64,000 bases of DNA, from NCBI RefSeq assembly GCF_963921235.1, contig NC_086097.1:28894001-28958000 (forward strand), given 5' to 3'. The notes under the pieces were generated by a model. The model was not told where the DNA came from and searched no databases. It was given only the letters and a program-made list of their open reading frames with translations. The position numbers and the translations under genes were made by a program. Below, piece after piece: positions 27,903 to 56,441 of this stretch; position 1 is the stretch's first letter; the number at the start of each line of letters is the position of its first letter. Origin of the DNA: Mobula hypostoma. Lineage: Eukaryota.

Positions 27903-28097
27903 ATACAAAAACTTCACGTTGTCGTTGACATCCAGTCCTTTGCACAGATTGGAAACCCCCTCATTGTTGATGTGGTTGGTGCTGAGGTTGAGCTCCAGCA
28001 GGGTGTTGTTGTACTTCAGAGTCTCTCCTATGGCCAACGCGCCTTCATTCCCAAACCCATTACAGGAAAGATCAAGGACCTTCAAGGTGATATTGAT
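27903..28097 (-). CDS. LRRC74A: LRRC74A-like exon (195 nt): INITLKVLDLSCNGFGNEGALAIGETLKYN...NDNVKFLY
   Basis: tctttag|ATC ... TAT|gtacgt; two RI-like LRRs; 65 codons, phase 0 to 0; overlaps ORF 27834..28085. Confidence 0.92.
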
Positions 28098-35750: not shown

Positions 35751-35800
35751 AGGAGGAGCAAGCTAAATCATGAAATGAAAGATGCAAAGTTAATGCTCAC

Positions 35801-35882
35801 CTAACATGTGTCCCAGGAATTCTGCTCCTTTATTTCCAAACTCATTGTAGCTAAGATCCAGCTCCGAAATTCTGAAATTAAT
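35801..35882 (-). CDS. LRRC74A: LRRC74A-like exon (82 nt): INFRISELDLSYNEFGNKGAEFLGHML
   Basis: cctgtag|ATT ... TTAG|gtgagc; LxLxxN LRR motif; phase 0 to 1. Confidence 0.88.
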
Positions 35883-35993: not shown

Positions 35994-38255
35994 CAGTCCC
36001 TATAAAAAGTATTCACCCCCCACCCCCGGAAGTTTTCATGTTTTATTGTTTTACACCATTTAGAACATTGAATCACGGTAGATATAATTTGGCTTTTTTT
36101 TACACTGATCAACAGAGAAAGATTCTTCCATATCCAACTGAAGACAGATCTCTACAAAGTGATCCAAATTAATTACACATATCAAACACAAAATAATTAA
36201 TTGCATAAGTATTCACCCCCTTTAATACGACACTCCAAGTCATCACTGGTGCAGCCAATTGGTGTTAGAAGTCACATAATTAGTCAAATGGAGATCACTG
36301 TGTAGTCGGGGGTTTCAACTGATTATAGTAAAAATACACCTGTATCTGGAAGGTCCAACTGCTGGTGATTCATAGAAACATAGAAACATAGAAAATAGGT
36401 GCAGGAGTAGGCCATTCGGCCCTTCGAGCCTGCACCGCCATTTATTATGATCATGGCTGATCATCCAACTCAGAACCCAGCCTTCCCTCCATACCCCCTG
36501 ACCCCTGTAGCCACAAGGGCCATATCTAACTTCCTTTTAAACATAGCTAATGAACTGGCCTCAACAGTTTGCTGTGGCAGAGAATTCCACAGATTCACCA
36601 CTCTCTGTGTGAAGAAGTTTTTCCTAACCTCGGTCCTAAAAGGCTTCCCCTCTATCCTCAAACTGTGACCCCTCGTTCTAGACCTCCCCAACATCGGGAA
36701 CAATCTTCCCGCATCTAGCCTGTCCAATCCCTTTAGGATCTTATACGTTTCAATCAGATCCCCCCTCAACCTTCTAAATTCCAACGAGTACAAGCCCAGT
36801 TCATCCAGTCTTTCTTCATATGAAAGACCTGCCATCCCAGGAATCAATCTGGTGAACCTTCTTTGTACTCCCTCTATGGCAAAGATGTCTTTCCTCAGAT
36901 TAGGGGACCAAAACTGCACACAATACTCCAGGTGTGGTCTCACCAAGGCCTTGTACAACTGCAGTAGTACCTCCCTGCTCCTGTACTCGAATCCTCTCGC
37001 TATAAATGCCAGATTCAGTATCTTGACAGAAACTACACCGTGAAAACAAAAGAACTCTCCAAGGCAACTCTGTGAAAAGGTTATTGAAAAGCTCAAGTCA
37101 AGAGGTGGATACAAGAACATTTCCAAGTCACTGTATATCCCTTGGAGTACCGTTAATTCAATCATCAAGAAATGCAGAGAATACGGCACAGCTGTAAATC
37201 TGCCTAGAGCAGGTCATCCTCAGAAACTGAGTGACCATGCAAGAAGGGGACTAGTGAGGGAGGCCACCAAGAGACCTATGACAACTCTGGAGGAGTTACA
37301 AGCTTCAGTGGGTGAGATGGGAGAGACTGCACATACAACAACTGTTGCCCAGATGCTTCACCTGTCACAGCTTTATGGGAGAATGACAAAGAGAAGCCAC
37401 TGTTGAAAAAAAGCTCACATGTAATCTTGGCTAGAGTTTGCTAGAAGGCACGTGGGAGACTCTGAAGTCAGTTGGAAGGAGGTATTATGGTCTAATGAAA
37501 CCAAAATTGAGCTTTTTGGCCATCAGACTAAATGCTATATTTGGCATAAGCCAAACACCACACATCATCAAAGACACACCATTCCTACTGTGAAACATGG
37601 TGGTGGGGATGCTTCACTGCAGCAGGCCCTGGAAGGCTTGTGAAGATAGAGAGTAAAAACAAAGGCAGCAAAATACAGGGAAATCCTGGAGAAAAACCTG
37701 ATGCAGTCTGCAAAAGAACTGCAACTTGGGAGAAGATTTGTTCTACAGCCAGACAATAACCCCAAGCATAAAGCCAAAGCTACACAAGAATTGCTTAAAA
37801 GCAACAAAGTTAATGTCCTGGAGTGGCCAAGTCAGAGTCCAGACCTCAATCCAGTTGAGAATTTGTGGCTGGACATGAAAAGGGCTGTTCACTCATGATC
37901 CCCATGCAATCTGACAGAGCTTGAGCAGTTTTGTAAAGAATGGGGAAAAGTTGCAGTATCCAGATGTGCAAAGCCGATAGAGACCTATCACACATACTCA
38001 AGGCTGTAATTGCTGCCAAAGGTACATCTACTAAATACTAACTTGAAGGGGGTGAGTAATTATGCAATTATTTTGTGTTTAATAATTGTAATAAATTTAG
38101 ACCAATTTGTAGAAATTTATTTTCACTTTGACATGAAGGAGTCTTTTATGTTGATCAGTGTCAAAAAAGCCAAATTAAATCCACTTAATTCAATGTTGTA
38201 AAACAATAAAACAGGAAAACTTCCAAGGAGTGGTGAATACTTTATATATGCCCTG
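35994..38255 (+). mobile_element. Tc1-like DNA transposon with long (~230 bp) IR/DR-type TIRs and a decayed transposase (~37040-38045)
   Basis: TA|CAG...CTG|TA ends; repeated aagtattcacccc within the [25 protein letters not shown] and [15 protein letters not shown] motifs. Confidence 0.93.
36373..37011 (-). mobile_element. Young 5'-truncated CR1 LINE inserted in the Tc1 element
   Basis: TSD gattca (36367-36372 / 37012-37017); (catagaaa)n tail; uninterrupted C-terminal ORF2 [19 protein letters not shown]. Confidence 0.93.
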
Positions 38256-38314
38256 TATATCATGAAACATGTTTTCTTATGACAGCAGAGCAGTGCAATA
38301 CATTTTAAAAAACT

Positions 38315-38680
38315 ACACTCAGTGTAATCAGTACACTGGTACACTTGTACACCTGCTTGTTAATGCAAATATCCAATCAGCCGATTATGTGGTGACAACT
38401 CAGTATATAAAAACATGCAGACATGGTCAAGAAGTTTGGTTATTGTTTGGACGAAACATCAGAATGGAAGAAGTATGATCTAAGTGACTTAGACCATGGA
38501 ATAGTTGGTGGTAACAGACAGGGTGGTTTGAGTATCGCAGAAACTGCTGATCTCCTGGGATTTTCATGTACGACAGACTCTGGAGTTTACAGAGAATGGC
38601 GCAATAAACAAAAAAAATCCAGTAAGTGGCAGTTCATTGGGCAAAAACATCTTGTTAATGAGAGATTTGAAGAAGGTGAG
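38315..38680 (+). mobile_element. Tc1/mariner-derived non-autonomous element fragment
   Basis: DLSDLDHGIVGGNRQGGLSIAETADLLGFS HTH remnant; same family as 51580-52135. Confidence 0.75.
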
Positions 38681-39016
38681 GAATGTGCTACCTCCTGAGT
38701 TCTCACTGAGGTTTCATCCATTATAAAAGTCAGTCTCCGGCCCTTTGGGCTTACACAGACTCATCAGGACACAAATGACTTCACCAATCGCATCATGGGC
38801 TGTGGGTCCTGACTAAACTCCAGGCATAACATAGAAAACCTGTTTACAAGAGGTAGAAGCACACAATCTATAACTCACAAGACCATAAGGATCAACTTCA
38901 TTCAACATATACTGTACATTTGCATGCATTGGATTGGGAATTTGCTGTGGTGTATTGGTGCGATGTGCATAAGAAGCAATTATAAATAAAGAATTATATC
39001 AAATTAAAGTTAGTGG

Positions 39017-39794
39017 TATTGGATTCTGGTATTTAAATTTGAGGTTCTTTCAGAAATCAAGAAAGAGACACAATCACAGTCATTTTATTAAGTGCTTATA
39101 GAACAAAAGAAACAGGAGTAGAAGCTAGTAGCAGAATATTTAAAGACAAAACTAAGATGCTAAGAAGATTAATCTTAAGATTCTAATATGGAGTTGCTTT
39201 GTGCTTAGCTATCTTATATCCATAAAAATAAGGAATATTCCATTCAAATTTCCAAATAAGAGTCAACCAATCAGAAGTCACTTATTCAATACTGCAATAT
39301 CAAGTCAACTAATGAGAAAACACTTATTCAAGTAATGCAGAACAAAGAAGCTTTCAGAACTTTCCAGAATTATAGTTTCTATAGCCACTAAAGACAATAT
39401 AAACTGTTGTATGCATATAAGAACTGCTTAAGATACAAACAGATAATTGTCAAACTGCAAAAGAATATAACAGTAAAACATTCTAATCCAAGAACTAAAC
39501 AGTCAGATCCAACAATCCCCTTAGATTCTAAATCACACCTTTAGAATCATCACATCCGAAATTTCAGAGGCAGAAAAACTTGTGGTATCTGTGCTAAGAA
39601 TAAAATAATTTAAAAACTACTTATGTTATAAAACATCAAAGGATATATATTCTTCAAAGTATTCATAAGATTATGTCATGGTTAAGCAGAGTAGTAGGCA
39701 CACATGTAAGTTTGAACCATTAATGATTGCAATTAAACAAGTAAAAATGTAAATTATGATAAAGCACAATAGTATGAATATTAACCTCAGCTTC
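39017..39794 (-). repeat. ERV 3' LTR; the U3-proximal end and PPT appear deleted
   Basis: Manual count of 36 mismatches over the 280-nt block 39241-39520 against the 5' LTR; homology ends at ...aacctcagcttc and joins directly to env TM sequence. Confidence 0.88.
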
Positions 39795-41361
39795 TGAGAC
39801 TTAATTGAATCCATTCAAAGAAATGCCACCCGTCAGATTGATGTATTTTAGCTGCTTCTTTACAAATGTGATCAGCCAAATTAATTATGTCTTCATGTCT
39901 TCAGATATGTCAGGTACAACACTCCTTGCCTGTAACTGCTTATGTTCCCCACTTAACTGCTAGGAGAAGATCTCATACCATATGATTTTGAAAGGCCATC
40001 TTAGGCATGGCGACCATTTCAGTTTTAATTTTTCTCAAGGCTTCAGTAATGTCTTTGCTTATCTTTCTAAAGCTACAGCAGCATCTCTCTTATACTCCTT
40101 GCAACGTCATAAAACGGGAATAAAATTGATTCAAAATAATCTCTTTCTGAAATGTCTCGTTTACTTCCAGACTTGGGAGGTAAAGGTAAAGAGTGTGTGT
40201 ATGTCTCATGGCAAGAAAAACATTTCAACCAATTACGTGGAAGAGGTTCATCTTCCATTTTCACACAAAAGGCATGTACTGTTCCATGAACTTAGACCAT
40301 TTCTTATTACTCGACAGCAATTTGTTGAATTGTAATTTTTTTTCTGATTGTCCATGAAAATTCCAGGGTTGTTACCCCATTTGCGACAACGTAAAGAGTA
40401 ACTGCATGAACTATGCCCTACTGGAATAGTGTCTTCTGAACTCAAGCAAAAGGTAGCTTTTATAGAGAACACATGAGAAGCTTTAATAGCTTTGTCACAA
40501 ACATTAGCTGTGGATATATCCCAGGATAAGACGTAAATAAGGTCAGACATGATATTCTCTAGATCATGCTGATTACATGAGGCCCTCGGCCGGTCAGGGC
40601 TGACCATGAATATTGCTTCCTTGCTGTCTAAGTGACATGCAAGCCAGGGCAGCACGATATGGAGAGTGAGCTGTTGTCCACGCAGCTGATGAAACCAAAG
40701 GAACGAAAGAGACTGGCATTAGCAGCTTTACAAGAGTTACCAGTCAGCATCGAAATCTACATAGGACTGCCTTAGGAACTCCAAGCTTGGGATTTTTCCT
40801 CTTGGTTTACTCCTGAAGCCTTCCCTGTGAGCCGGTATAGCCACAAATCAGTGGAGATTTGAGATCGGTTTTCATTCTCCTAGATGAGCTGACAAGCCCC
40901 ATCTGCCCAACTGGAATAGTTCATGCAATTACACTTTACGTTGTTGTAAACTGGGTAATGACTCTGGGATTTTCATGGACAATCAGAAAAATATTACAAT
41001 TCAACAAATTGATTATATTTACATGAATGATCCAGTTTAAGACAATACAGTATGAGGGGGGCATGATCATCTCTCTTGAGAATAATGAATCACAGGAATA
41101 ATGTCAACACCGCCATTGCTGGAGTATTTAATAAAGAGGGTGCATGTTTGTTCTTGACCTGCAGGAATGCCCAGCATTTGTGAATATTTTGAAGTTTATG
41201 ATATATATTGACATACCCAACAGCTAGAGTCATTAACAGCATCAACAAATTCACATGATACTCCCAAATATACACTATGAATCACCTCAATTGTCACATT
41301 ATGAGTAGGGGAAAATTGTCAAAAATATAACAACAACTAATAATATTAGAATGATCTTCAT
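39795..41361 (-). pseudogene. ERV env remnant (gamma-type envelope)
   Basis: Signal peptide MKIILILLVVVIFLTIF from 41361; NDSSCWVC (CXXC at 41211-41222); SKR|DISERDYFESILFP cleavage/fusion region near 40160; FQNHMV*DLLLAVKWGT*AVTGKECCT at 39913-39993 (decayed ISD plus CX6CC). Confidence 0.9.
40550..40910 (-). mobile_element. Short non-autonomous retroposon inserted in env, resembling an RTE-type 5' UTR
   Basis: Interrupts env; minus strand begins GGGCAGATGGGGCTTGTCAGCTCATCTAGGAGAA; family assignment from memory only. Confidence 0.4.
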
Positions 41362-41452
41362 AATGTCTAGTAGTCGTTGACTAGCTTGAAGTTCTTCTGG
41401 CTGGTTAGTGATCTGGTCACTGTAACCCAGCAGCACAGGCATTGTAACCAAG

Positions 41453-42730
41453 TGAATTGAATTGAATTGACTCTATTACTTACATCCTTCGTATACATGA
41501 GGAGTAAAAATCTTTACATTATGTCTCAGTCTAAATATACAATGTGTAATTTATAATAAATGGCATGTACAACAGGATAGTCAATATAACTTAGAAACAC
41601 AGTTGTGTCAACATGAATTAGCAGTCTGATAGTCTGGTGGAAGAAGCTGTCCTGGAGCCGGTTGGTTCTGGCTTTTATATTGCGGTACCGTTTCCCGAAT
41701 GGTAGCAGCTGGAACAGTTTGTGGTTGGGGTGACTCAGGTCCCCATGATCCTTCAGGCGTTTTTTACACACCTGTCTTTGAACTGTCCCGAACAGTGGGA
41801 AGTTCACATCTACAGATGCGCTGGGCTGTCCGCACCACTCTCTGCAGAGTCCTGCGATCGAGGAAAGTACAGTTCCCATACCAGGCAGTGATGCAGCCAG
41901 TCAGGATGCTCTCAATGCCTCTATAGAATGTTCTTAGGATTTTGGGGGCCCACACCAAACTTCTTCAACTATCTGAGGTGAAAGAGGCGCTGTTGTGCCT
42001 TTTTCACCACACAGCCGATATGTACAGACCACCTGAAATCCTTAGTGATGCGTCTACCGAGGAACTTAAAGCTGTTCACCATCTCAACCCCAGATCCATT
42101 GATGTCAGCAGGGGTTAACCTGTCTCCATTCCTCCTGTAGTCCACAACCAGCTCCTTTGTTTTTGCGACGTTAAGAGAGAGGTTGTTTTCTTGACACCAC
42201 TGTGTCAGGGTGATGTCGACTTCTCTGTAAGCTGCCTCGTTATTATTTGAGGTTAGGCCAATCAGCGTAGTGTCGTCAGCAAATTTAATTAGCAGATTGG
42301 GGCTGTGGGTGGCAACACAGTCATGGGTATGCAGGGAGTAAAGGAGGGGGCTTAGTACACAGCCCTGAGGGGCACCTGTGTTGAGGGTCAAAGGGCAGAG
42401 GTGAGGGAGCCCACTCTTACCACACCTGCCAGCAATCTGACAGGGAGTACAGGATACAGCCACACAAGGCAGGGTGAAGCATTAGGTCTCCGAGCTTCTT
42501 GTCTAGCCTGAAGGGAATTATGGTGTTGAATACTGAACTGTAGTCCAAGAACAGCATTCTCACATAAGCATCCCTCTTCTCCAGATGAGTAAGGACAGTG
42601 TGAAGAGCTGTGGCTATTGTGTCATCTGTCGTTTGGTTGTGTCGGAAGGTGAATTGTAGGGGGTCCGGTGTGGGTGGTAGCATGCTGCAGATGTAGTTCT
42701 CGACCAACCTCTCAGAGCATTTGCTTATTA
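41453..42730 (-). mobile_element. 5'-truncated Rex1/Babar-like LINE between ERV pol and env
   Basis: RT motifs [16 protein letters not shown] and KFADDT; (aattg)n tail; same family as 57430-58925. Confidence 0.9.
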
Positions 42731-42789
42731 TAGGTGTTTACTAAGATGTTAACTACAGAGCTTGTTGTCCTTGTTGGATAGATACCACA

Positions 42790-43415
42790 GTAGCTCGCTT
42801 GCAGTGGCTGGCGTGTATCAACTTAATTTTACCTTCTACGTTCACTGCTGAGTTGGTAGTCAACAGCACTCGATAAGGACTTTCCCATCAAGCTCCCAGT
42901 GATTCCTTATGCGGTTTCTTAATCAGGACCCACCACCAGGAATCAGGTTCTGTCCTCCTTCTGTTGGACCCTCCAAGTGGCAGAAACGTGTTGAGAAGCA
43001 GGCTGTACAGCTTGAGTTAATTTCACACAATACTTCTCTGCCATAACGTGTATATCAGCCTCTCTCAGATCGGGGGCCCCTGGAAGTGACATAGTTACCT
43101 CCTTGAATGGACATAGGTTAGTTTTTTTGTATGGGGTTGCTCAGATGCTCCACAAGGCCACAGGAAGAGCTGTAGGCCATGGTACCTCTTCCCTCATGAT
43201 ACTTAGTCTGAATGATGTGGGCATTGGAAAGACAATTCAATGTTCATCAGTCAACATTATTCCAGTGAAATGTGTTCTTTGGTCAGAGTCAATGTGACAC
43301 AACAATCCCCAGCCTGGAGTACAGTCCTTGATTAGAGATGTTGCTGTGTGTGTGTGTGTGGCAGTAGCTTTCCTTGCGGAATAGTTTCCACACATCTTGA
43401 AAACATGTCCACTAT
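42790..43415 (-). pseudogene. ERV integrase core and C-terminal remnant
   Basis: IVDMFSRCVETIP...PGWGLLCHIDSDQRTHFTG...WPTALPVALWSI*ATP...WVLIKKPHKESLGA*WESPYRVLLTTNSAVNVEGKIKLIHASHCKR: first two D residues of DDE and a GPY/F-type C-terminal domain. Confidence 0.9.
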
Positions 43416-46400
43416 TACTTTATTATCGCCAAACAATTGATACTAGAGCGTACAATCATCACAGCGATAGTTGATTCTGCATTTTGCGCTCCCTGGAGTA
43501 CAAATCGATAGTAAATATTAAAAATTTTAATTATAAATCATAAATAGAAAATAGAAAAGGGAAAGTAAGGTAGTGCAAAAAAACCAAGAGCCAGGTCCAG
43601 CTATTTGGAGGGTACGGCCCAGATCCGGGTCAGGATCCGTTCAGCAGTCTTATCACAGTTGGAAAGAAGCTGTTCGCAAATCTGATCGTATGAGTCTTCA
43701 AGCTCCTGAGCCTTCTCCCGGAGGGAGGAGGAATGGAAAGTGTGTTGGCTGGGTGGGTCGTGTCCTTGATTATCCTGGCAGCACTGCTCCGACAGCGTGC
43801 GGTGTAAGGTGAGTCCAAGGACAGAAGATTGGTTTGTGTGATGTGCTGGGCTGTGTTCAGGATCTTCTGCAACTTCTTCCGGTCTTGGACAGGACAACTT
43901 CCATACCAGGTTGTGATGCACCCTAGAAGAATGCTTTCTACAGTGCATCTAATTTTCCCCCAGGATCAATAAAGTATGACTATGACTATGACTATGACTA
44001 TAAAAATTAGTAAGGGTTTTGGGGGACAGGCCAAATTTCTTTAGTTTTCTCAGGAAGTAAAGGCGCTGGTGGGCCTTCTTGGCAGTGGACTCTGCTTGGT
44101 TGGAGCAAGTCAGGTCATTTGTGATATTGACCCCGAGGAACTTAAAGCTTTTGACCTGTTCCACCTGTGCACCACCGATGTAGAAGGGGTTGTGCAGTCC
44201 GCTACTCCTTCTGAAGTCAACAACCAATTCCTTTGTCTTGCTGACATTGAGGGATAGGTTATTGTCTTCGCACCATGCCACCAGGTCTTTAATTTCCTCT
44301 CTGTACTCAAACTCATCATTACCCGAGATACGGCCTACAATTGTGGTGTCATCAGCAAACTTATATATTGAGTTCGATGGAAACTTGGCTGCACAATCAT
44401 GGGTGTACAGTGAGTACAGCAGGGGGCTGAGTACACAGCCTTGTGGGGCACCGGTGCTCAGAGTGATTGTAGAGGAGAGCTTGTCCCCTATTTTTACAGC
44501 CTGGGTCCTGTCTGTGAGGAAGTTGAAGATCCAGCTGCAGATCTGAGTAGTAAGGCCCATGTTCCAGAGCTTAGGAATCAGATTATTTGGAATGATGGTA
44601 TTAAAGGCAGAACTGTAGTCAATGAAAAGGAGCCTTACGTATGCATCTTTACTCTCCAGGTGTTCTAAGGAGGAATGTAGGGCCAGGGAGATGGCATCTG
44701 CCGTTGACCTGTTGCTCCGGTAGGTGAATTGCAAAGTGTCGAGGTTGACCGGTAGGCTGTGGTTGATGTGTGCCATAACCAATCTCTCAAAGTACTTCAT
44801 GGCAATTGATGTCAGAGCCACAGGTCGATAGTTATTCAGGCATGCCACCTTGCTCTTCTTCGGCACTGGGATTATCGTTGCCTTCTTAAAACACGAGGGG
44901 ATCTTCGACTGAAGCAGGGATCAGTTGAAGATGTCAGCAAACACTCCAGCCAGCTCACTTGCACAGGCCCTGAGAACCTGTCCTGGGACACCATCTGGGC
45001 CCATTGCCTTCCTTAGATTTATCTTCAGGAAGGCCCTTCTAACGTCCTCCTCGGTGACGATGAATTTCGATGCCACCAGGTCCGGTTCATCCGGAGGGAG
45101 AGAGACACTCCTCTTCTGTTCGAATCTTGCGTAGAATACGTTAAGTTCGTCAGGAAGAGAAGCGCCACAGATATTGATATTCCCAGCCTTTTCTTTGTAC
45201 CCAGTGATCTCATTTAGACCCTGCCATAGTCTACTGCCATCCTTTTGGTTAGCCTGGGCTTCCAACTTGGCTCGATATTGCCTCTTGGCGCCCTTAATAG
45301 CTTTCCGGAGTTCACGCCTGAATTCCGTGTAGCGACTGGTATCCCCGGACCTAAAAGCCGCAGCTCTAGCCTTCAAAAGGGACTGGACCTCATAATTGAT
45401 CGAAGGTTTCCAGTTAGGGAATACCCGGATCGTCTTGCAAGACACACAGTCCTCTGTGCATTTCCAAATAAAGTCTGTGACAGCTGAGGCATACTCGTCG
45501 AGGTTAGCTGACGAGTCCTTGAATACTAACCAGTCCACCGATTCAAAGCAGTCACGGAGGACCTCATCCGTTTCCTCTGTCCAACGCGACACTACTTTTG
45601 ACACCGTGACCTCCTGCTTCAGTTTCTGTTTGTAAGCCAGAAGGAGGAGTACGGCCTGATGGTGGATTTTCCGAAGTGAGGTTGTGGGACAGAGCGGTAG
45701 GCATCCTTGACTGCTGTGTAGCAGTGGTCAAGTATATTCGGGCCTCTAGTGGGGCAGGAGACATGTTGGTATAACTTTGGCAGCGCCTTTCTGAGGTTGG
45801 CCTGGTTAAGGTCCCCAGCTGTAATGAGCAAAGCCTCTGGATACCAGGTCTCAAGTTCACTGATGTTGGCATACAGTATGTTCAGAGCACACTCCACGTC
45901 TGCCTGGGGGGGAATATAGACCACTGTCAGTATGACCGAGGGGAATTCCCGTGGCAGATAGTAGGGACGACACTTCACCGACAGGTGTTCCAGGTCCGGG
46001 CTGCAGGAGCTTGTCAGTGCCACTGTGTCTGAGCACCACGCAGTGTTGATCAGAAGGCAAACACCATCTCCCCTCATCTTGCCCGAAGACACCATGCGGT
46101 CCATCCGATGGATCGAAAATCCCTCCAGTTGGATGGCACAGACGGGTGTGGCAGGGGAGAGCCAGGTCTCGGTGAAACAGAATACACAGCAGTTCTGCAT
46201 CTCCCTGCAGTAGATGAGTCTCCCTTTAAGATCATCCACCTTGTTCTCTATGGCTTGCACATTAGCTAGTAGGATGGTGGGCATAGGGACCCTGAAGCCC
46301 CTCAGCTTCAATCTGACCAGCAGCCCAGCTCTTTCCCAACGCTTCCTCGGTAAGTAGTGCATCTTTCCAGGTTTCCATCGATGCAGTGTGTTGTTGGCAG

Positions 46401-47200
46401 CTCTTTGAGGTAGGTGGACGTGTCCCACGGGGATTGATCGGCGGGTTGCATCATTGGGCGCTCCAGGTCAGGCCAAGTGACGGGGGAGGCTCCACTGCCA
46501 CCTCCAGCTGCCGGGGGCCCAGGCTGTCAATCAGGTTGGGCCCTGAAGCTGACACTTAATCCCAGAGGACCAGGCTGCTGGCTGAATCGGGCCCCAGAGC
46601 CAAAACTTATCCCGGAGGGCCGGGCTGCCGGCTGGATTGGGCCCCGGAGCCAACTCTTGGCCCCGGAGGGCCGGGCTGTCGGCTGAAACAAGTCCGTGAG
46701 CTGAGTCACGGTTGCAGAGGCCTCCGCTCCAGCCGAGCCTCGGGCTCAATTTCCGAGGTCAGCGGCGGAGGCCTCACTTCCGGGAGCTGTGGATGGCCAC
46801 CTACAGGGTTGTCGCTCCGGGGAAGAGCCTGGGGCACCTTGATGTCTCCAACGTCACTTCTGTGTGGTTGTCTGCTCTGGAGAGGTGCTGGTCGGAATGG
46901 GCCATGTCTCCAAGTGCTCCGGCATGGTAGCAGGCCGCGGGCCTCCGGGAACGTGGTGGGCCTCGGACCAGGCCTCGCTGGTCGGGTCCAGGTGCGGTCC
47001 AGAGTTTAAGAAGCAATTTTGGCACGGTGATCTCCAGCTGGGTCTGTAGCTTCGCCAGGGTGTTGTTGATCTTGCTATATGTAGCAGGTTGGAGGTTTAG
47101 AAGGGTTTCTCGGGTATAGGATAGTGTGGAGGGCAGTTTGCTCAGGAGAGCACATGCAGAGTCACCAGATACCAATGCCGTTACACAAGTACAAGGAAAG
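43416..47200 (-). mobile_element. Near full-length Rex1/Babar-clade LINE inserted into the ERV integrase
   Basis: APE endonuclease (ORF 45619..46428; FTETWL, GDLN) and RT (ORF 43949..44866; [13 protein letters not shown]); GC-rich 5' region; several frameshifts; 5' boundary approximate. Confidence 0.92.
46510..46686. repeat. ~50-bp GC-rich tandem repeat (~3.5 copies) in the Rex1-like LINE 5' region
   Basis: Unit cccggagggccgggctgccggctggattgggccccggagccaa at ~46561, 46611 and 46662. Confidence 0.8.
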
Positions 47201-47217
47201 GTGTCTGAGTATTTGCA

Positions 47218-47450
47218 TGTCTGAGTATCTCTGACACTTCGGTGAAGAAATGTGGTCCACTTGGACCAGGTGGGGCAGGAGCACTTAATTGTGGTAACTT
47301 TCCCACTGCTCCAGGATTTACTTTCTGGCATTTCATGCATCTTTCAAATGTTTGTCAAGCTTGTGCCCTGAGCTATGGATTCCACCACCATTGGGAGAAT
47401 CTGTTGATCATCTTCTGCAATCCAATGAGTCCATTTGCTGTGCCAGGTAA
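47218..47450 (-). pseudogene. ERV integrase N-terminal zinc-binding remnant
   Basis: Manual translation: YLAQQM...QKMINRFSQWWWNP*LRAQA*QTFERCMKCQKVNPG...APAPPGP..VDHISSPKCQRYSD; stops and frameshifts present. Confidence 0.85.
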
Positions 47451-47888
47451 TCTTGTATGTTTGTCTGAGATTTAGAGTTCAACTTTGTTTCCATATTTCC
47501 AGCTGTCGGGTTTACTGCATGTATTCTTGGTGCTTCTTTTAAATGGATGCTGCTTTCCTGCGGCAATGCTTCGTGTAGATGTGCTCAATATTTAAGTCTT
47601 CTTATGCACTCTACTAGTTCACAAGAATTTATTACCTTTTTTCATGCTCCACTGCTTATACAAATTTACTTTTTGACACTCTACTGGCTTGTGTACTTAA
47701 TCCATGCTCTATCAGTTTGCATGTGGCTCTATCATGTTGCATTTCTTCTTTAAAGGTCTATTTTTAAAATAGCAGCCTGGCAGTTCCCCTCTCCCATCTC
47801 CTATCTGATGACCTAGAAGCTAGAAATAAGTTTTTGCTCAGACAATTTGGAACACAAGAGGAAGTTCTTACCCCTTTTGTTGCATGCA

Positions 47889-47906
47889 ATCCTGCCAACT
47901 ATGCCA
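47889..47906 (-). promoter_or_regulatory. Retroviral primer-binding site, tRNA-Ser
   Basis: Minus strand TGGCATAGTTGGCAGGAT, 2 nt after the LTR CA; the complement of the vertebrate tRNA-Ser(AGA) 3' end is TGGCGTAGTCGGCAGGAT; both differences are CpG transitions. Confidence 0.88.
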
Positions 47907-47908
47907 CT

Positions 47909-48898
47909 TGTTGGATTCTGGAGTTTAGATCCAAGATTCTTTCAGAAGTCAAGAAAGAGGCACAAAACTTGTTGCTTCACAATCATTTTATTAAGTGCTT
48001 ATAGAGCAAAGGAAAAAGGAGCAGAAGCTAGTAGCAGAAAGCTTAAAGGCCAAACTAAGGTGCTCGGAAGATTAAGATACTAAGATGGTGGTACTTTGTG
48101 TTTAGCTATTTTTATACCCATAGAAATAAGGAAAATTCCATTCAAATTTCTAGATAAGAGACAACCAATCAGAATTCACTTACTATATACTGCAGTATCA
48201 AGTTAACTAATGAGAAAACACTTATTCAAGTAATGCAAAACAAAGAAACTTCCAGAGATTTCCAAAATTGTACTTTGTATAGCCACTAGAGGCATATTAA
48301 ACTGTTATATGCATATAAGAATGACTTAAAATACAAGCAGATAATTGTTAAACTACAAAATAATATTACAGTTAAACAGTCTAATCCAAGAACTAAACAG
48401 TCAGATCCAACTATCCCCGTTTGATTCTAGAATCATTATATCTGAAATGTCAGAGGCAGAAAAACTGTGGTATCTGTGTTAAGAATAAAATAAACAAAAA
48501 ACTACTTAACGTGAAACATCAAAGGGTATATATCCTTCAAAGTATTTATATGATTATGTCATGGTTAGGCAGATCAGTAGACACACATTAGAGTTTGAAC
48601 TATTCTATTAATAATCATCTTTAAACCAGTAAAAAAAGATATAAATTATGATAATGAATATTAGTATGAATATTATGACATATTGAGTAACCCCAGCTTC
48701 TCTACTGTAATGCCAAGTTCTTATTCAAGAACGTCCAGAGCTTACCAGAATTATACTTTATATAGCCACAAGAGGCATATTAAACTGTTATATGCATAAA
48801 AAAACTACTTAAAATACAAGCAGATAATTAACTGTTAAACCTCAAAGAAAATAACAGCGAAGCAGTCAAATCTAAGGATTAAACCGCTGGATCCAACA
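47909..48898 (-). repeat. ERV 5' LTR (~990 bp) with an internal U3 duplication
   Basis: Direct repeat of 39017-39794; TG...CA termini; minus-strand TATA-like gtataaaa near 48110-48117 and AATAAA near 47987-47992; ~48730-48898 repeats ~48245-48412. Confidence 0.88.
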
Positions 48899-49149
48899 GA
48901 GGTTGAAGTACAGTTACGGAATAAAATGTTCATAAGTACATAAATACCAGCTTGTATTTACATTGTAAGCAGCATTATAAAATGCTTAAAGTGCTTACAG
49001 TGCCATGCAGTGTCAGGGATAATAGACAGAGGGGGGTGGGAGGGTTAACTAGAATGATTGATCAGATTAACTGCCCAGGGGAAGGTATACCTCCCAATGC
49101 ATGATTAAACAAAGATAACAGGTGCTAGTGAGTTGAATGACCTAAACTG

Positions 49150-51070
49150 ATTAACTGAAACAAAAACGGCTGAAGAAACAATCAAAATTGACAAAGGACA
49201 ACCAAATTAAAAAGGGAGGCCGTGGCAGATGTGACAGTTTAACCTTCAAATCATCTATTCTTATACCACGGCAAGAGTGAGATAGAAACAAGGCACAAGG
49301 TGGTCATTCCAAGTAGAAATTTCATCGCAGACAGGAGTTTCAAGATGTGTTGTCCAAGCTCATCTGAAGAAGCACAAAGAAGCAGGCAAAGTTGAGGAAC
49401 AGAAACGTAGTGGTCGGCCACTGAAACTGAAGACGAGAGAGACATCAAACTCGAGGAAATCTGCAGGCGCTGGAAATTCAAGCAGCACACACAAGATGCT
49501 GGTGGAACGCAGCAGGCCAGACAGCATCCATAGGAAGAAGCACAGTTGACATTCCAGCCGAGACCCTTCGTCAGGACTCTAGCAATAAAGAGATCCAGAG
49601 CAGGCAGAAAACCAGAGCGGGGTGTCCATGAAGAGGAGGAGGAGGGTTGAAGATGGGAGACGGGGTCATCGGTGGGGGTGGGAGAGTCCTTGCCGAAAAG
49701 GTAGGCTCAAAGACAGAGCCGGCGGAAGAAGAGTTCAGCGTCATGGCGCACGCGGAACTCGCTGAGGTGTGGGCAAAGGGGGACAAAGGTGAGGCCCTTA
49801 CTGAGGACAGAGCGTTCTGCCTCCGACAGTTGAAGGTCGGAGGGGATGGTAAAGACCCGGCATGGATGAGAGCTGGGATCAGAGGAGGGAGGGGGAGGGA
49901 GGCTGGTAGTGTCAGTGGAGAGGGGAGGGTTGGGATGAGAGGAAGATGGAGCCTCTGAGGGCCCAGGAGCTGATGATGGGATCTGAGGGAGACAGGGTTG
50001 CAGAGTGGTGGTGGGGGAAGGGGAGACGGGAGTCACAATAGCAGCACGTGAAGACCTGACGAAGGGTCTGGGCCCGAAACGTCGACTGTGCTTCTTCCCA
50101 TGGATGCTGTCTGGCCTGCTGCATTCCACCAGCATTTTGTGTGTGTTGCAGACATCAGACTGATGTCCCTTCTAAATCAGAAGAAGTGCAGCGCTGTTAT
50201 CAGCTCTGATCTCACAGAAACCACTGGAACCCAAGTACACCCCTCTACAGTATGGAGAAGTCTTATCAGAAGTGGTCTTCATGGAAGAATTGCTGCCCAA
50301 AAGCCATTCCCTTGAAGTGGAAACAAAGCCAAGAGACTCACCTACAAAAACACAAACACTTGAGTGCTGAACAATGGCAGTAAGCGCTCTAGACTGACGA
50401 GTCAAAATTTTGGAATTTTTAGCTGAAACAGGAGATAATTTGTCCGTAGAAGCACTGGAGAGTGTGACATGGACGAGTGCCTGCAGCCAACAGTGAAGCA
50501 CAGTGGAGATTCCCTGCAGGTCTGGGGCTACGTTTCTGAAAATGGAGTTGGTAATCTGGTCAGAATTAATGGAATCCTCAGTGATGAGAAGTACAACCAG
50601 GTTGTCGTCCATTACACAATACCATCAGGGAGGCATTGGACTGGTCCCAACTTCATTCTGCAACAGAGCAATGACACAAAATACACGGCCAAGGTCATAA
50701 AGAACTACCTTCAGTGAAAAGGAGAACAAGGAGTTCTGCATCAGATGGTATGTCTTCTACAGTCCTGAGCTCAACATCGTTGAGACTGTCTGGGATTACC
50801 TGGAGAGACAGAAGTAAACGAGACAGCCGCATTCTGCAGAAGAATTGTGACAAGTTCTTCAAGATGCTTGCAACAACCTACCAGGGGTGATGTTCTTATA
50901 AAACTGCTCAACAGTGTACCTAAGAGAATTTATGCAGTTTTAAAGGCAAAGTGTGGTCACACCAAATAATGATCTGATTATAGGAATTTAGAAACTTCTA
51001 ATTTCGTTATTTTTAAAGCATCATCGCTTTACATAATTTTTTTACGTGTGCTCAAGACTTTTGCTGAGCC
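49150..51070 (+). mobile_element. Second, decayed Tc1-like transposon interrupted by the Penelope insertion
   Basis: VHPSTVWRSLIRSGLHGR and ECLQPTVKHSGDSLQVWG motifs; TIR-like right end near 51045-51070; left TIR not found. Confidence 0.8.
49452..50149 (-). mobile_element. Rearranged Penelope-like insertion: N-terminal ORF fragment flanked by inverted hammerhead-bearing terminal repeats
   Basis: LSEAERSVLSKGLTFVP motif; inverted repeats 49452-49578 and 50053-50149 (the plus copy has an intact CTGACGA...GAAACGTC core); 12-bp TSD agacatca(a/g)act at 49440-49451 / 50150-50161. Confidence 0.88.
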
Positions 51071-52135: not shown

Positions 52136-52270
52136 TGTCCATGTAAATGCACTGGGTGAATAAAGTTGATCGTTGAACACTTACAGAGAAAGCAAGCAAT
52201 ACGGTCTCCAAACAAAAATAACCCAGTTGGAAATAGGAATATTTTACCAAAAGTTTTCCTCTTTACTTAC

Positions 52271-52320
52271 AGATAAAACGTCATCAAAAAATGCAGCATC
52301 ACTGTTGGTGAATTTGTTTC
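52271..52320 (-). CDS. LRRC74A: LRRC74A-like exon (50 nt): (G)NKFTNSDAAFFDDVLS
   Basis: ccactttcag|GA ... TCT|gtaagt; phase 1 to 0; too short for the ORF track. Confidence 0.85.
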
Positions 52321-53302
52321 CTGAAAGTGGGAGATAAAAGGAATAAAGGTGGTATATTGTAGAAATTACCCTGGGGCTTCATTCAAAGTCAAAGTCAAAT
52401 TTATTTTCAAAGTAGTTTACAAGTTTGTTACCAAATATTACCTTGAGATTCATTTTCTTATAGTCATTTACAGGAATATAAGGAAATACAATCAAATTTA
52501 TGAATAATTACTGTGCACATAAACAAAGACTGACAAACAACTAATGGGCAAAAGAAGACAATTACTGCAGATAAAAAAGTACTGAGAACATGAGTTGCAA
52601 AGGATCCTTGGAAGTGAGTCTGAAGATTGTGGAGTCAGTTCAGGTGAGTGGAGTTAACCGCACTAGTTCAGGAGTCTGATGGTTGAAGAGTAATAACTGT
52701 TCCTGAACCTGGTGGTGTGCGACCTGTACCTCTTTTCCAATGGTAGTAATGAGAAGAGAGCATGGCCTGGCTGGTGGAGTCCTTGATGATAGATGCTACT
52801 TTCTTGTGGCAATGTTCCATGTCAATGTGCCCAGCTCAGTGAATGACCTGGTTATTATAGATTGAACTTATTTTCCCCCAATTTCAGATCCCCTTGCCTC
52901 CCATGTTATCCCCTCTCTCCTTCTGATCCACCTGTACTCTCCCACTTTTATTCCTTTTCCCATACTCTCTATTCCTATATTATCCTTTCTGGTCCATCTG
53001 TCTACTTCCCACACTTCACTCTCCCTGCTTGTTAACATCTGTTGGATTGAGATGTCGAAGTGTTTCTTTTTGTAGCTTAACTTTCCTATGCTTGCTTGTA
53101 TTTTTATCTAATCATCTATATGCATGCAATTGTCCAGTAAATTTTCCAGTAATTACAGTACAGTTGCTTCTCTGTTTTTCTAGAAGCTTCTTAGTTTCCA
53201 GTAGAAGGATTCACACCACTTGATTCTGGCTATTTTATAGGTTAATTGTTATCACTGGAATTCTTGGTGTGAAAAATTCCATTGGTTGTCATTGGAACAC
53301 TC

Positions 53303-54807: not shown

Positions 54808-56347
54808 GAATGAAGACTGGTTCAAAAGCCTGATGGATGAGGGGTTACAGCTATTCCTGAACCTGGTGGTGTGGGTCCTGAGGCTCCTGTGCCTTCTTCC
54901 TGATGGCAGCAGTGAGAAGAGAGCATGGTCTGGGTGGTGGGGGTCCCTGATGATGGATGCTGCTTTCCTACGACAACACTTTGTGTCGATCTGCTCAATG
55001 CTGGGGAGAGCTTTACCCGTGATGGACTGGGCTGTATCTACTACTTTTTTTTAAATCAAAGTTTTGACAAAGTTTGTCAAAGTTTTAGACATCATGGCAA
55101 ATCTTCGCAAGCTTCCAAGGAAGTAGAGGTGTTGCCGTGCTTTCTTCAAAATTGCACTTGCAGGCTGGGCCCAGAGTAGGTCCTCTGAAATGATAACACT
55201 GATCCTCTCCACCCCTCATCCCCTGATGAAGATTGCCTCCTGAACCCTCCAGTTTCCTCCTCCGGAAGTCAGTAATCAGCTCCTTGGTCTTGCTGACATT
55301 GAGTGAGAGGTTGTTGTTGAGGCTCCACTCAGCTGGATTTTCAATCTCCCTCCTCTACGTTGATTCAGCCAATGACAATGGTGTCATCAGCAAACTGAAA
55401 TATGGCATTGGAGCTGTGCTTAGTCTCACAGTCATAAGTGTAAAGCCAGTAGATCTGGAGGCTAAGCACACAGTCATGTGGTATACCTGTGCCAAGGAGA
55501 TTGTATTCTGGTAAGAATACAAGTAGTAACGTGGGAATGAACTCCTCTGCAGGTTTGGAATTAAACACAATACACACAGATCTGCTGGCTGGTCCAAGTA
55601 TTAGTGGCCCTAACAGTTTCTACTTTCTCAGTCTCCAATGTTCTGCCTGATCAGCTGTCAGTGGACAGTGTAGTAAGTAGGTTCAGACTCAGATTAATTT
55701 CCTTATCATGTTTACACTGAAACAGAAAGCAAAATGCTTTGTTTGCCTTACCAGCTAAGGATGTGCCAGGAGGGCCTGCAAGTGTTGCCACACATCCTGG
55801 CACCAGCATAGCAAACCCACGATGCTCAGCAGAACAACACAAGCAGCAGCAACAACAGCAAAATAAGCCCCTTTCCTCCCTCCCAGCCACCCAGCCATGC
55901 CCTTCTCTTGTTGCTGGCATCGGGAAGGAGATCCAGGAGCTCTAGGTTCCACAGCACCAGGTTCAGGAACAATTATTACCTCTCAACCATCAGGCTCCTG
56001 AAGCAACATGGGTAACTTCACTCACCTCAACACTGAACTGACTCCAGAACCTGTAGACTTATTTTCAGACATTACAACTCATGTTCTCAGTATTATTTAT
56101 TCACTTATTTTTTAATTTGCACAGTTTGTCTTATTTTGCACATTGGTTGTTTGTCTGTCTTTGATTATGTATAGTTTTTCATTAATTCCACTGTATTTAA
56201 TTTTTCCTCTCTCCCTTCCCATCCCCCACTCTCCCCAACCTCTCCCCCTTCCCCTCTCTCCCCCTCCCCCCTCCCCCTCTAATCCCAGGCGAGGCCAGGG
56301 ATTCACAGACGTTACAGTAAATAAGAATGTACACTTGCGGTGTTTAC

Positions 56348-56441
56348 CTGCCACCTTGATGCACTTGAGAGAGATGTTGAGTGGAAGCTTTCTGCACAGC
56401 ACCTTTGCTCCCTGAGTCCGCAGCTCATTGTTGGACAAGTT
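56348..56441 (-). CDS. LRRC74A: LRRC74A-like gene, first visible coding exon (94 nt): NLSNNELRTQGAKVLCRKLPLNISLKCIKVA(G)
   Basis: Acceptor ctgttacag|AAC, donor GCAG|gtaaac; RI-like LRR; phase 0 to 1 matches the next exon; resembles the remembered LRRC74A segment NISNNHLGLEGA...SLELSG. Confidence 0.85.

Follow-up and report, generated by a model that had tools for sequence, protein, structure and literature searches.

The window analysed here, a stretch of 64,000 nucleotides from the ray Mobula hypostoma (contig NC_086097.1, positions 28,894,001 to 28,958,000), contains at 39017-48898 the remnant of a genuine endogenous retrovirus (ERV) of class I, that is, murine leukaemia virus (MLV)-like, which is long dead and degraded. 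It lies within an intron of the gene LRRC74A, and we consider it very probable that a gammaretrovirus-like class I element inserted there once and afterwards decayed neutrally. A first-pass annotation of the window had proposed a hidden provirus bounded by long terminal repeats (LTRs) at this position, and the proposal was borne out, with an LTR pair, a primer-binding site (PBS), a polypurine tract (PPT) and remnants of integrase and env all located. The provirus is real but not a lone one, being a single copy of a family that gave thousands of first-look matches in the genome. It is an ordinary dead copy in a large old family, in which no coding capacity remains and for which there is no sign of present function.

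Coding remnants of a class I retrovirus

The element is framed by two direct repeats, at 39017-~39805 and 47909-~48705, with an identity of 87.4% across 791 columns without gaps. The coding remnants between them are all on the minus strand, and the provirus is therefore a minus-strand one, with 48898 as its upstream and 39017 as its downstream end. The host gene is read in the same direction. Proteins named LRRC74A from four batoids match the exon at 27906-28097 with 100% identity, and the longest of them, followed exon by exon, matches at 94-100% from exon 35799-35882 downstream and at 72-74% at the upstream exon(s), always on the minus strand. Because the element sits between two such minus-strand exons, 52265-52333 (with an equivalent match at 56301-56441) and 35799-35882, it is intronic and in sense orientation, and the earlier placement in an LRRC74A intron of a cartilaginous fish is correct, the gene being that of a batoid ray. 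The two matches 52265-52333 and 56301-56441 both correspond to LRRC74A residues ~135-184, at only 72-74% identity, and may reflect the duplication of an exon, alternative exon use or a difference between species.

The class I (MLV-type) identity of the element is supported by the integrase C-terminus, the RNase H of related copies and the alignment of the transmembrane subunit (TM) of the envelope. The integrase survives in two separated pieces on the minus strand. An N-terminal region at 47184-47541, following the RNase H/integrase boundary and carrying the zinc-finger motif CMKC (47328-47339), is 76-86% identical to other copies over query positions 368-690. The C-terminal part of the catalytic core and the C-terminal domain follow at 42741-43418, in several frames, and are 69-80% identical to genome copies. 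All of the integrase motifs named in the first-pass annotation (CxxC, IVDMFSR, IDSDQRTHFTG and IHASHCKR) were found on the minus strand, the last three at 43395-43415, 43261-43293 and 42795-42818, together with PYRVLL at 42861-42878. The open reading frame (ORF) at 42756-42887 scored 27.3 bits (E 2.8e-6) against the Pfam family MLVIN_C, just below the cut-off of 29.2; the same family scored 40.1 bits in the related copy L060 and 41.3 bits in L024, and L060 matched PDB entry 2m9u, a structure of the MLV integrase C-terminal domain, at E 1.8e-7. The integrase C-terminus appears to be of the class I type, as had been claimed. The related ORFs also matched Integrase_H2C2 and rve, in both cases under the cut-offs.

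A further related copy, L058, retains the region upstream of integrase. Here a degenerate tether (RT_RNaseH_2, 24.4 bits, sub-cut-off) is followed by a canonical RNase_H domain (34.2 bits against a cut-off of 25.8). The latter matched the RNase H of MLV and xenotropic MLV-related virus (XMRV) in the PDB at E 1.2e-10, as against 0.16 for that of human immunodeficiency virus, and the only significant PDB matches of the tether ORF were four chains described as Gag-Pol or 'RT/RNase H p80', the same as for the RNase H. A HMMER search with the L024 integrase ORF against 1.84 billion proteins (E<=1e-3) returned 465 proteins; those with names came from turtles, a frog, a lizard and pufferfish, most were unnamed or uncharacterised, and four records were labelled NYNRIN-like. 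Thirteen long homologues were scanned, and RNase_H, rve and MLVIN_C were present in all 13, with RT_RNaseH_2 in 12, RVT_1 in 11, RVP in six and Gag_p30 in two; no chromodomain was detected in any of the 13 among families at E<=1e-5. A prior homologous-protein search with the same ORF had given 341 candidates, none of them significant.

Homology to other copies begins only from 47541 downstream, and none of the 44 other genome matches spans the deletion junction. Because no other match crosses it, gag, pro, reverse transcriptase (RT) and most of RNase H are deleted in the window copy, in agreement with the earlier statement that nearly all of gag-pro-RT is gone, and the junction can be placed at ~47541-47590. 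It is occupied by a ~47-bp piece (47542-47589) of an unrelated, very high-copy repeat that is scattered in inconsistent contexts in L004, L006, L013 and L048 and recurs at 54953-54999 of the window. This second occurrence lies 6 kb away, and hundreds of contigs are split on both sides of the repeat in four of four sequencing runs.

The envelope gene is represented by three minus-strand segments. Its 5' part, at 41010-41454, was recognised from motifs and related ORFs and comprises a signal-peptide-like hydrophobic start (MKIILIL.. at 41341-41361) and the CXXC motif of the surface subunit (SU), here CWVC at 41211-41222. The CXXC comes ~45 residues after the hydrophobic start, which leaves no N-terminal receptor-binding domain (RBD); related ORFs have CWLC, CWVC or CRVC in the same place, and the related SU ORFs share a motif F/Y-MCGNG-Y--LP-NWLG followed by a basic stretch. 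A remnant of the SU C-domain at 40045-40578 is homologous to other copies and recognisable at the motif level only. Next comes the remnant of the TM ectodomain, at 39784-40044, with a heptad region, a QN..LD.LLA motif resembling the immunosuppressive domain (ISD), FQNHMV at 39976-39993, GKECC at 39916-39930 and a CX6CC motif. The first-pass annotation had reported a CXXC/CX6CC env, and both elements can be traced, the first cysteine of the window's CX6CC having been replaced by a stop codon; three more stops interrupt the same stretch in frame, and a fifth falls on its last aligned position. In copy L043 the C-X6-CC is intact.

Support for the retroviral nature of this TM came from three open Env ORFs of the host genome (L061-L063, 500-557 amino acids), with which the window and 60 family loci were searched by tblastn. 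L061, the one of the three that was scanned, scored 58.7 bits against Pfam TLV_coat, and it aligned to 39784-40044 of the window at 30% identity over 94 amino acids (E 6e-4, against five sequences). The same TM region was matched in 12 independent loci including the window, with E-values down to 8e-9 in other copies, so that the env motifs do align to a retroviral TM. Other attempts to place the envelope gave less: an ESM Atlas search with the SU ORF of L042 gave no usable match, and a nine-row protein alignment of env ORFs was too patchy for use. The open Env ORFs deserve a word of their own. L061, L062 and L063 are near-identical to one another, and Pfam TLV_coat is matched above its cut-off at least 78 times in the host genome, with many of these matches in stop-free frames of 450-970 amino acids, which points to much younger elements bearing gamma-type env genes, or to co-opted env genes.

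Primer sites, terminal repeats and the composite upstream end

The PBS is an 18-mer at 47889-47906 on the minus strand, two bases past the LTR. Of its 18 positions, 16 are complementary to the 3' end plus CCA of the tRNA-Ser(AGA) of the host itself, and the other two are transitions at CpG sites, exactly as had been described; in copies L013 and L059 the CpGs are intact at both positions. The genome has nine occurrences of a 20-mer taken from the 3' end of tRNA-Ser, and all three loci examined were tRNA-Ser(AGA) genes, called by ARAGORN, that end at the motif. Past the PBS lies a leader remnant (47590-47888, minus strand), of which query positions 19-83 match the leader that follows the 5' LTR of L059.

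The extent of the LTRs turned out to be smaller than first thought. A search of the host genome (3.48 Gb in 200 contigs, in which the window is C1:28894001-28958000) with the 990-bp block 47909-48898 gave 2814 first-look candidates, 40 of which were scored. With the window's own two matches set aside, 13 of the 40 stopped at ~503, 12 reached ~793 and none went past 796. When separate pieces of the block were compared by BLAST with the fetched loci, eight copies, L059 among them with its 5' LTR running on into the leader, had the 503-bp LTR without the 290-bp block upstream of it, and other copies had the block; in every copy with the block, a purine tract of the type AAAGGGGGGA stands directly upstream of TGTTGGAT. 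The end of the matches at ~503, the LTR-only copies and the position of the purine tract together define an LTR unit of ~500 bp, preceded by a 290-bp block with which the internal region ends on its 3' side. An overlap with this block is seen in copy L027 for the sequence that aligns to the membrane-spanning part of a TLV_coat-positive Env.

With this unit in hand, the two ends of the provirus can be read on the minus strand. The 3' LTR of ~499 bp (39017-39515) starts with TGTTGGAT, ends with ATCCAATA and is a repeat of 47909-48411. Adjoining its start is the PPT, AAGGGGAT (39515-39522), and the same A/G-rich tract is found in many other copies; the 3' internal end, with the remnant of the env membrane anchor and tail and the PPT, covers 39516-39805 and is continuous with env in other copies. 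At the other end, repeat and genome-copy comparison identify a complete LTR of 503 bp at 47909-48411, the 5' LTR of the PBS-bearing unit. Upstream of it lie a second 3'-internal block with env tail and PPT (48412-48705, the PPT at 48413-48421), which is 11.5% divergent from 39517-39805, and, fused to that block, a partial third LTR (48706-48898) that consists of the first ~175-190 nucleotides of the LTR and again starts with TGTTGGAT. On the plus strand the termini read TATTGGAT at 39017, TGTTGGAT at 47909 and ATCCAACA at 48891-48898; on the coding strand the LTR ends are TG..CA, with a transition in one terminus (TATTGGAT at 39017). The repeats and their TG..CA ends thus agree with what the first-pass annotation had seen, and its reading went astray on their length, which is ~500 bp and not ~800-990. 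Nor is the right-hand repeat a single LTR, since it is a composite of a 193-bp LTR fragment, a second 290-bp env tail with PPT and a complete LTR. Its estimate of ~13% divergence between the LTRs was accurate: the two full LTRs differ at 63 of 490 aligned positions (12.9%, Kimura two-parameter distance (K2P) 0.143).

The candidate target-site duplication (TSD) consists of GTGG at 39013-39016 (plus strand) and GAGG at 48899-48902. The 4-bp TSD reported earlier was over-read, as only three of the four bases agree. Three of four bases also agree in L058, and the 4-bp duplication is perfect, AAGG/AAGG, in a related element on contig C59 (loci L013/L003).

Weighing of alternative histories

A number of results weigh against a single insertion of a class I element and have to be set beside the evidence for it. 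No Pfam family rose above its curated cut-off in the 36 stop-to-stop ORFs of the window, the best being MLVIN_C, 1.9 bits short, and Gag_p30 and other gag or protease families were absent from Pfam scans of 38 ORFs of L058-L060. TLV_coat had no match to the family env, neither in the 36 window ORFs (E<=1) nor in the other env ORFs (four at E<=0.1 and four at E<=1), and Pfam as a whole returned nothing for the env ORFs of related copies. A PDB sequence search with the env ORF L058:1299-1805 gave chance-level matches only, and two SU ORFs showed no significant similarity to Env ORF L061 by BLASTP. The link of the family to TLV_coat is only a transitive one, by way of the TLV_coat-positive ORFs of the same genome, and the class assignment leans on related copies, integrase and TM, because RT, protease and gag are missing from the window copy. 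At the ends of the element, a TSD that agrees at three or more of four bases is expected by chance in ~5% of cases, and the outer LTR fragment differs from the full LTRs by 16.7% and 19.3%, against 10.4% between the full LTRs over the same stretch, an excess that a simple tandem of one age does not predict.

These last two points are also what could be said for two or more independent insertions of the family, in which the outer 193-bp LTR and env tail would belong to an older copy, next to or within which the PBS-bearing element later settled, and nested or adjacent insertions are plausible given the abundance of the family. Yet integration joins LTR ends, and here the full LTR is preceded by an env tail and PPT, the arrangement of a 3' LTR; the PBS follows that full LTR, no duplicated target lies between, and the 290-bp block and the LTR are similarly divergent (11.5% and 12.9%), as expected of one duplicated unit. 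The excess divergence is, moreover, based on only ~180 aligned bases, and we regard independent insertions as unlikely, if still the most serious of the alternatives. The similar divergence of the two parts of the ~800-bp repeated unit (290 bp plus LTR) would equally suit an upstream block born during reverse transcription, by plus-strand priming at an upstream purine-rich site or by template switching. Such an origin leaves the extra 193-bp start of an LTR upstream of the block unexplained, and the junction of fragment and block occurs in no other copy among the loci examined, none of the 40 other LTR matches passing 796, so that it appears improbable. Least probable is a Ty3/Gypsy-type (Metaviridae) retrotransposon with an acquired envelope-like ORF. 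Its appeal lies in Integrase_H2C2, the best-matching model for the integrase zinc finger, which is common to Gypsy elements, and in the GPY/F-like C-terminal motif, which is also found in Gypsy integrases. It founders on the degenerate tether and separate, canonical XMRV/MLV-matching RNase H in L058, and on the retroviral layout of the long homologues, all 13 with RNase_H followed by rve and MLVIN_C, none with a chromodomain and two with Gag_p30; these rule out a Gypsy affiliation of the integrase, and the TM aligns to a TLV_coat-positive Env besides.

For the favoured single insertion with subsequent decay, the following history may be proposed. A gammaretrovirus-like class I virus, or a copy of an already endogenous family, would have integrated in sense orientation into the LRRC74A intron in an ancestor of the ray group. 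To judge from its anatomy, a host tRNA-Ser presumably served as primer for the minus strand, and the AAGGGGA tract adjoining each ~500-bp LTR as primer for the plus strand. The family env was probably a short one of gamma type, with a signal peptide, an SU that has CXXC close to its very start, and, in TM, an ISD-like motif and CX6CC. The sequence itself shows the neutral decay that came afterwards. Gag, pro and RT were lost together with most of RNase H (junction ~47541-47590), a near-full-length LINE (long interspersed nuclear element) entered the integrase core and a truncated LINE came to lie between integrase and env; a 430-bp fold-back rearrangement took place in env, and CpG transitions, stops and frameshifts accumulated. 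The upstream end, composite as it is, probably arose by unequal recombination into an LTR-internal-LTR-internal-LTR tandem, the first unit of which was later largely deleted.

Age, family and later insertions

The age of the insertion was approached through Logan contigs of four runs (organisms A-D), placed on 38000-49900. Contigs of single-copy depth crossed the flank/LTR junction at 39017 in all four, with 0 differences in A, which is probably the source species, 10/750 in B, 38/~785 in C and 29/~549 in D. As the contigs of B, C and D, which are 1.3-5% diverged, cross this junction, the insertion is old and shared. A contig of organism B also covers the composite upstream end (48382-48929), which is therefore shared in B, and contigs of organism C cover 40762-41185 and 47589-47959, the first of which shows the env rearrangement to be shared in C. 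The insertion is thus older than splits with ~5% accumulated divergence, and the LTR K2P of 0.143 is about two to three times that between-organism value; the earlier impression of an old insertion holds. The absolute age depends on the rate, and would be ~325 My at the elephant-shark rate of Han 2015 (PMC4422223) and ~33 My at a mammalian rate. Several ray taxa have the element as an orthologous insertion, which makes it a potential marker for phylogeny and dating.

The identity of family copies to the window copy is 66-86%. Besides the three loci of the open Env ORFs, four 10-kb copies were taken for close reading, and every family copy examined was degraded: the longest ORFs of the four on the element strand were all below 175 amino acids, and none of the four was a less-degraded copy with RT, protease or gag. 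The start of env lies next to integrase in 10 of 11 integrase-bearing loci, with env beginning within ~65 bp of integrase in other copies, and at least three of the loci (L022, L025 and L031) have lost most of env. On account of these deletions, it was no longer held that the family had kept env while rising to high copy number. L022, L025 and L031 share the same deletion, in which integrase is followed by ~140 bp of the env start and then by the 290-bp env tail with PPT and the LTR, and this suggests an env-deleted subfamily that spread.

The comparison with known systems places the element in familiar company. It shares with class I ERVs, for which MLV is the reference, the MLV-type integrase C-terminal domain, the XMRV/MLV-like RNase H and RT connection of related copies, the TG..CA LTRs, the 4-bp TSD of a related copy, the gamma-type CX6CC of TM and the CXXC of SU. 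It differs from them in its tRNA-Ser PBS and in a short SU that lacks the N-terminal RBD, and its own remnants are missed by TLV_coat and Gag_p30, the window copy being without gag-pro-RT. Closer to the ray among hosts are the CmiERVs of the elephant shark (Han 2015, PMC4422223), which are ancient, have pol and a downstream env, were given ages from the divergence of their LTRs and group with class I-type retroviruses of fish. Compared by description only, they are alike as old ERVs of cartilaginous fish with pol followed by env, and unlike in their holocephalan rather than batoid host and in an LTR divergence of 0.024-0.033 as against 0.143 in the ray element (PMC4422223).

Two other elements resemble the ray ERV in single traits. 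XtERV-S of Xenopus combines a tRNA-Ser(AGA/TGA) PBS with a class I-like TM with CWIC and ISD motifs, and so has both the primer and the TM type in common with the ray element; its gag-pol is class III (ERV-L-like), intact and young (PMC8278194), whereas the pol remnants of the ray are MLV-like and the copy is degraded. An SU that begins at CXXC without an RBD is a described variant of the gamma-type Env, exemplified by syncytin-2 (bioRxiv 10.1101/2024.03.17.585361), and the likeness of the ray Env to this type is one of motif positions in broken ORFs. ERVs of cartilaginous fishes have been documented by Han 2015 (PMC4422223) and by Xu et al. 2018 (PMC6001957). A literature search on ray, skate and Mobula ERVs gave chondrichthyan ERV papers and none on batoid ERV families, a result that says nothing on entries in Repbase or Dfam.

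The element changes nothing conceptually, because vertebrates commonly have class I ERVs with a gamma-type envelope, and cartilaginous fishes had already been added to the list of hosts. Its modest value is descriptive, as a record of an abundant old ERV family in a ray genome that uses a serine-tRNA primer and has a short SU starting at CXXC, and its concealment from ORF-based annotation by nested LINEs and an internal deletion makes it a worked example. There is a tentative case, which we hold to be somewhat doubtful, for a batoid-specific and undescribed class I lineage with a tRNA-Ser primer and an RBD-less gamma-type Env that had reached hundreds or thousands of copies before several ray species split. 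If true, such a lineage would give the history of gamma-type envelopes a deep point of calibration within the cartilaginous fishes.

The remaining features of the stretch are later additions to the provirus. A near-full-length LINE of 3.77 kb (43419-47183, minus strand), with an endonuclease-like ORF and an RT that scores 113.4 bits against Pfam RVT_1, splits the integrase core; family homology ends at 43418 and returns by ~47217, or by 47184 at the protein level. A second, 5'-truncated LINE fragment of 1.29 kb (~41455-42740, minus strand; RVT_1 43.8 bits, very high read depth) lies between integrase and env. In other copies both LINEs are absent, the integrase halves adjoin, and so do integrase and env. 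The 430-bp rearranged segment within env (40579-41009) is likewise missing from copies that have both flanking env segments, env query positions ~491 and 923 adjoining directly there, and self-BLAST revealed that 40913-41011 is an inverted duplicate of env 40318-40417 (87% over 100 nucleotides). The LINE, the LINE fragment and the 430-bp segment add up to 5.48 kb, close to the ~5.4 kb of later insertions given in the first-pass annotation. Directly upstream of the element flank is a repeat of very high depth (38000-38793), and the ORF 38411-38698, for which Pfam gave no match, resembles by eye the N-terminus of a Tc1/mariner-type transposase. In the 5' region of the nested LINE, a GC-rich unit of 51 bp is repeated in tandem at 46510-46712, with four copies.

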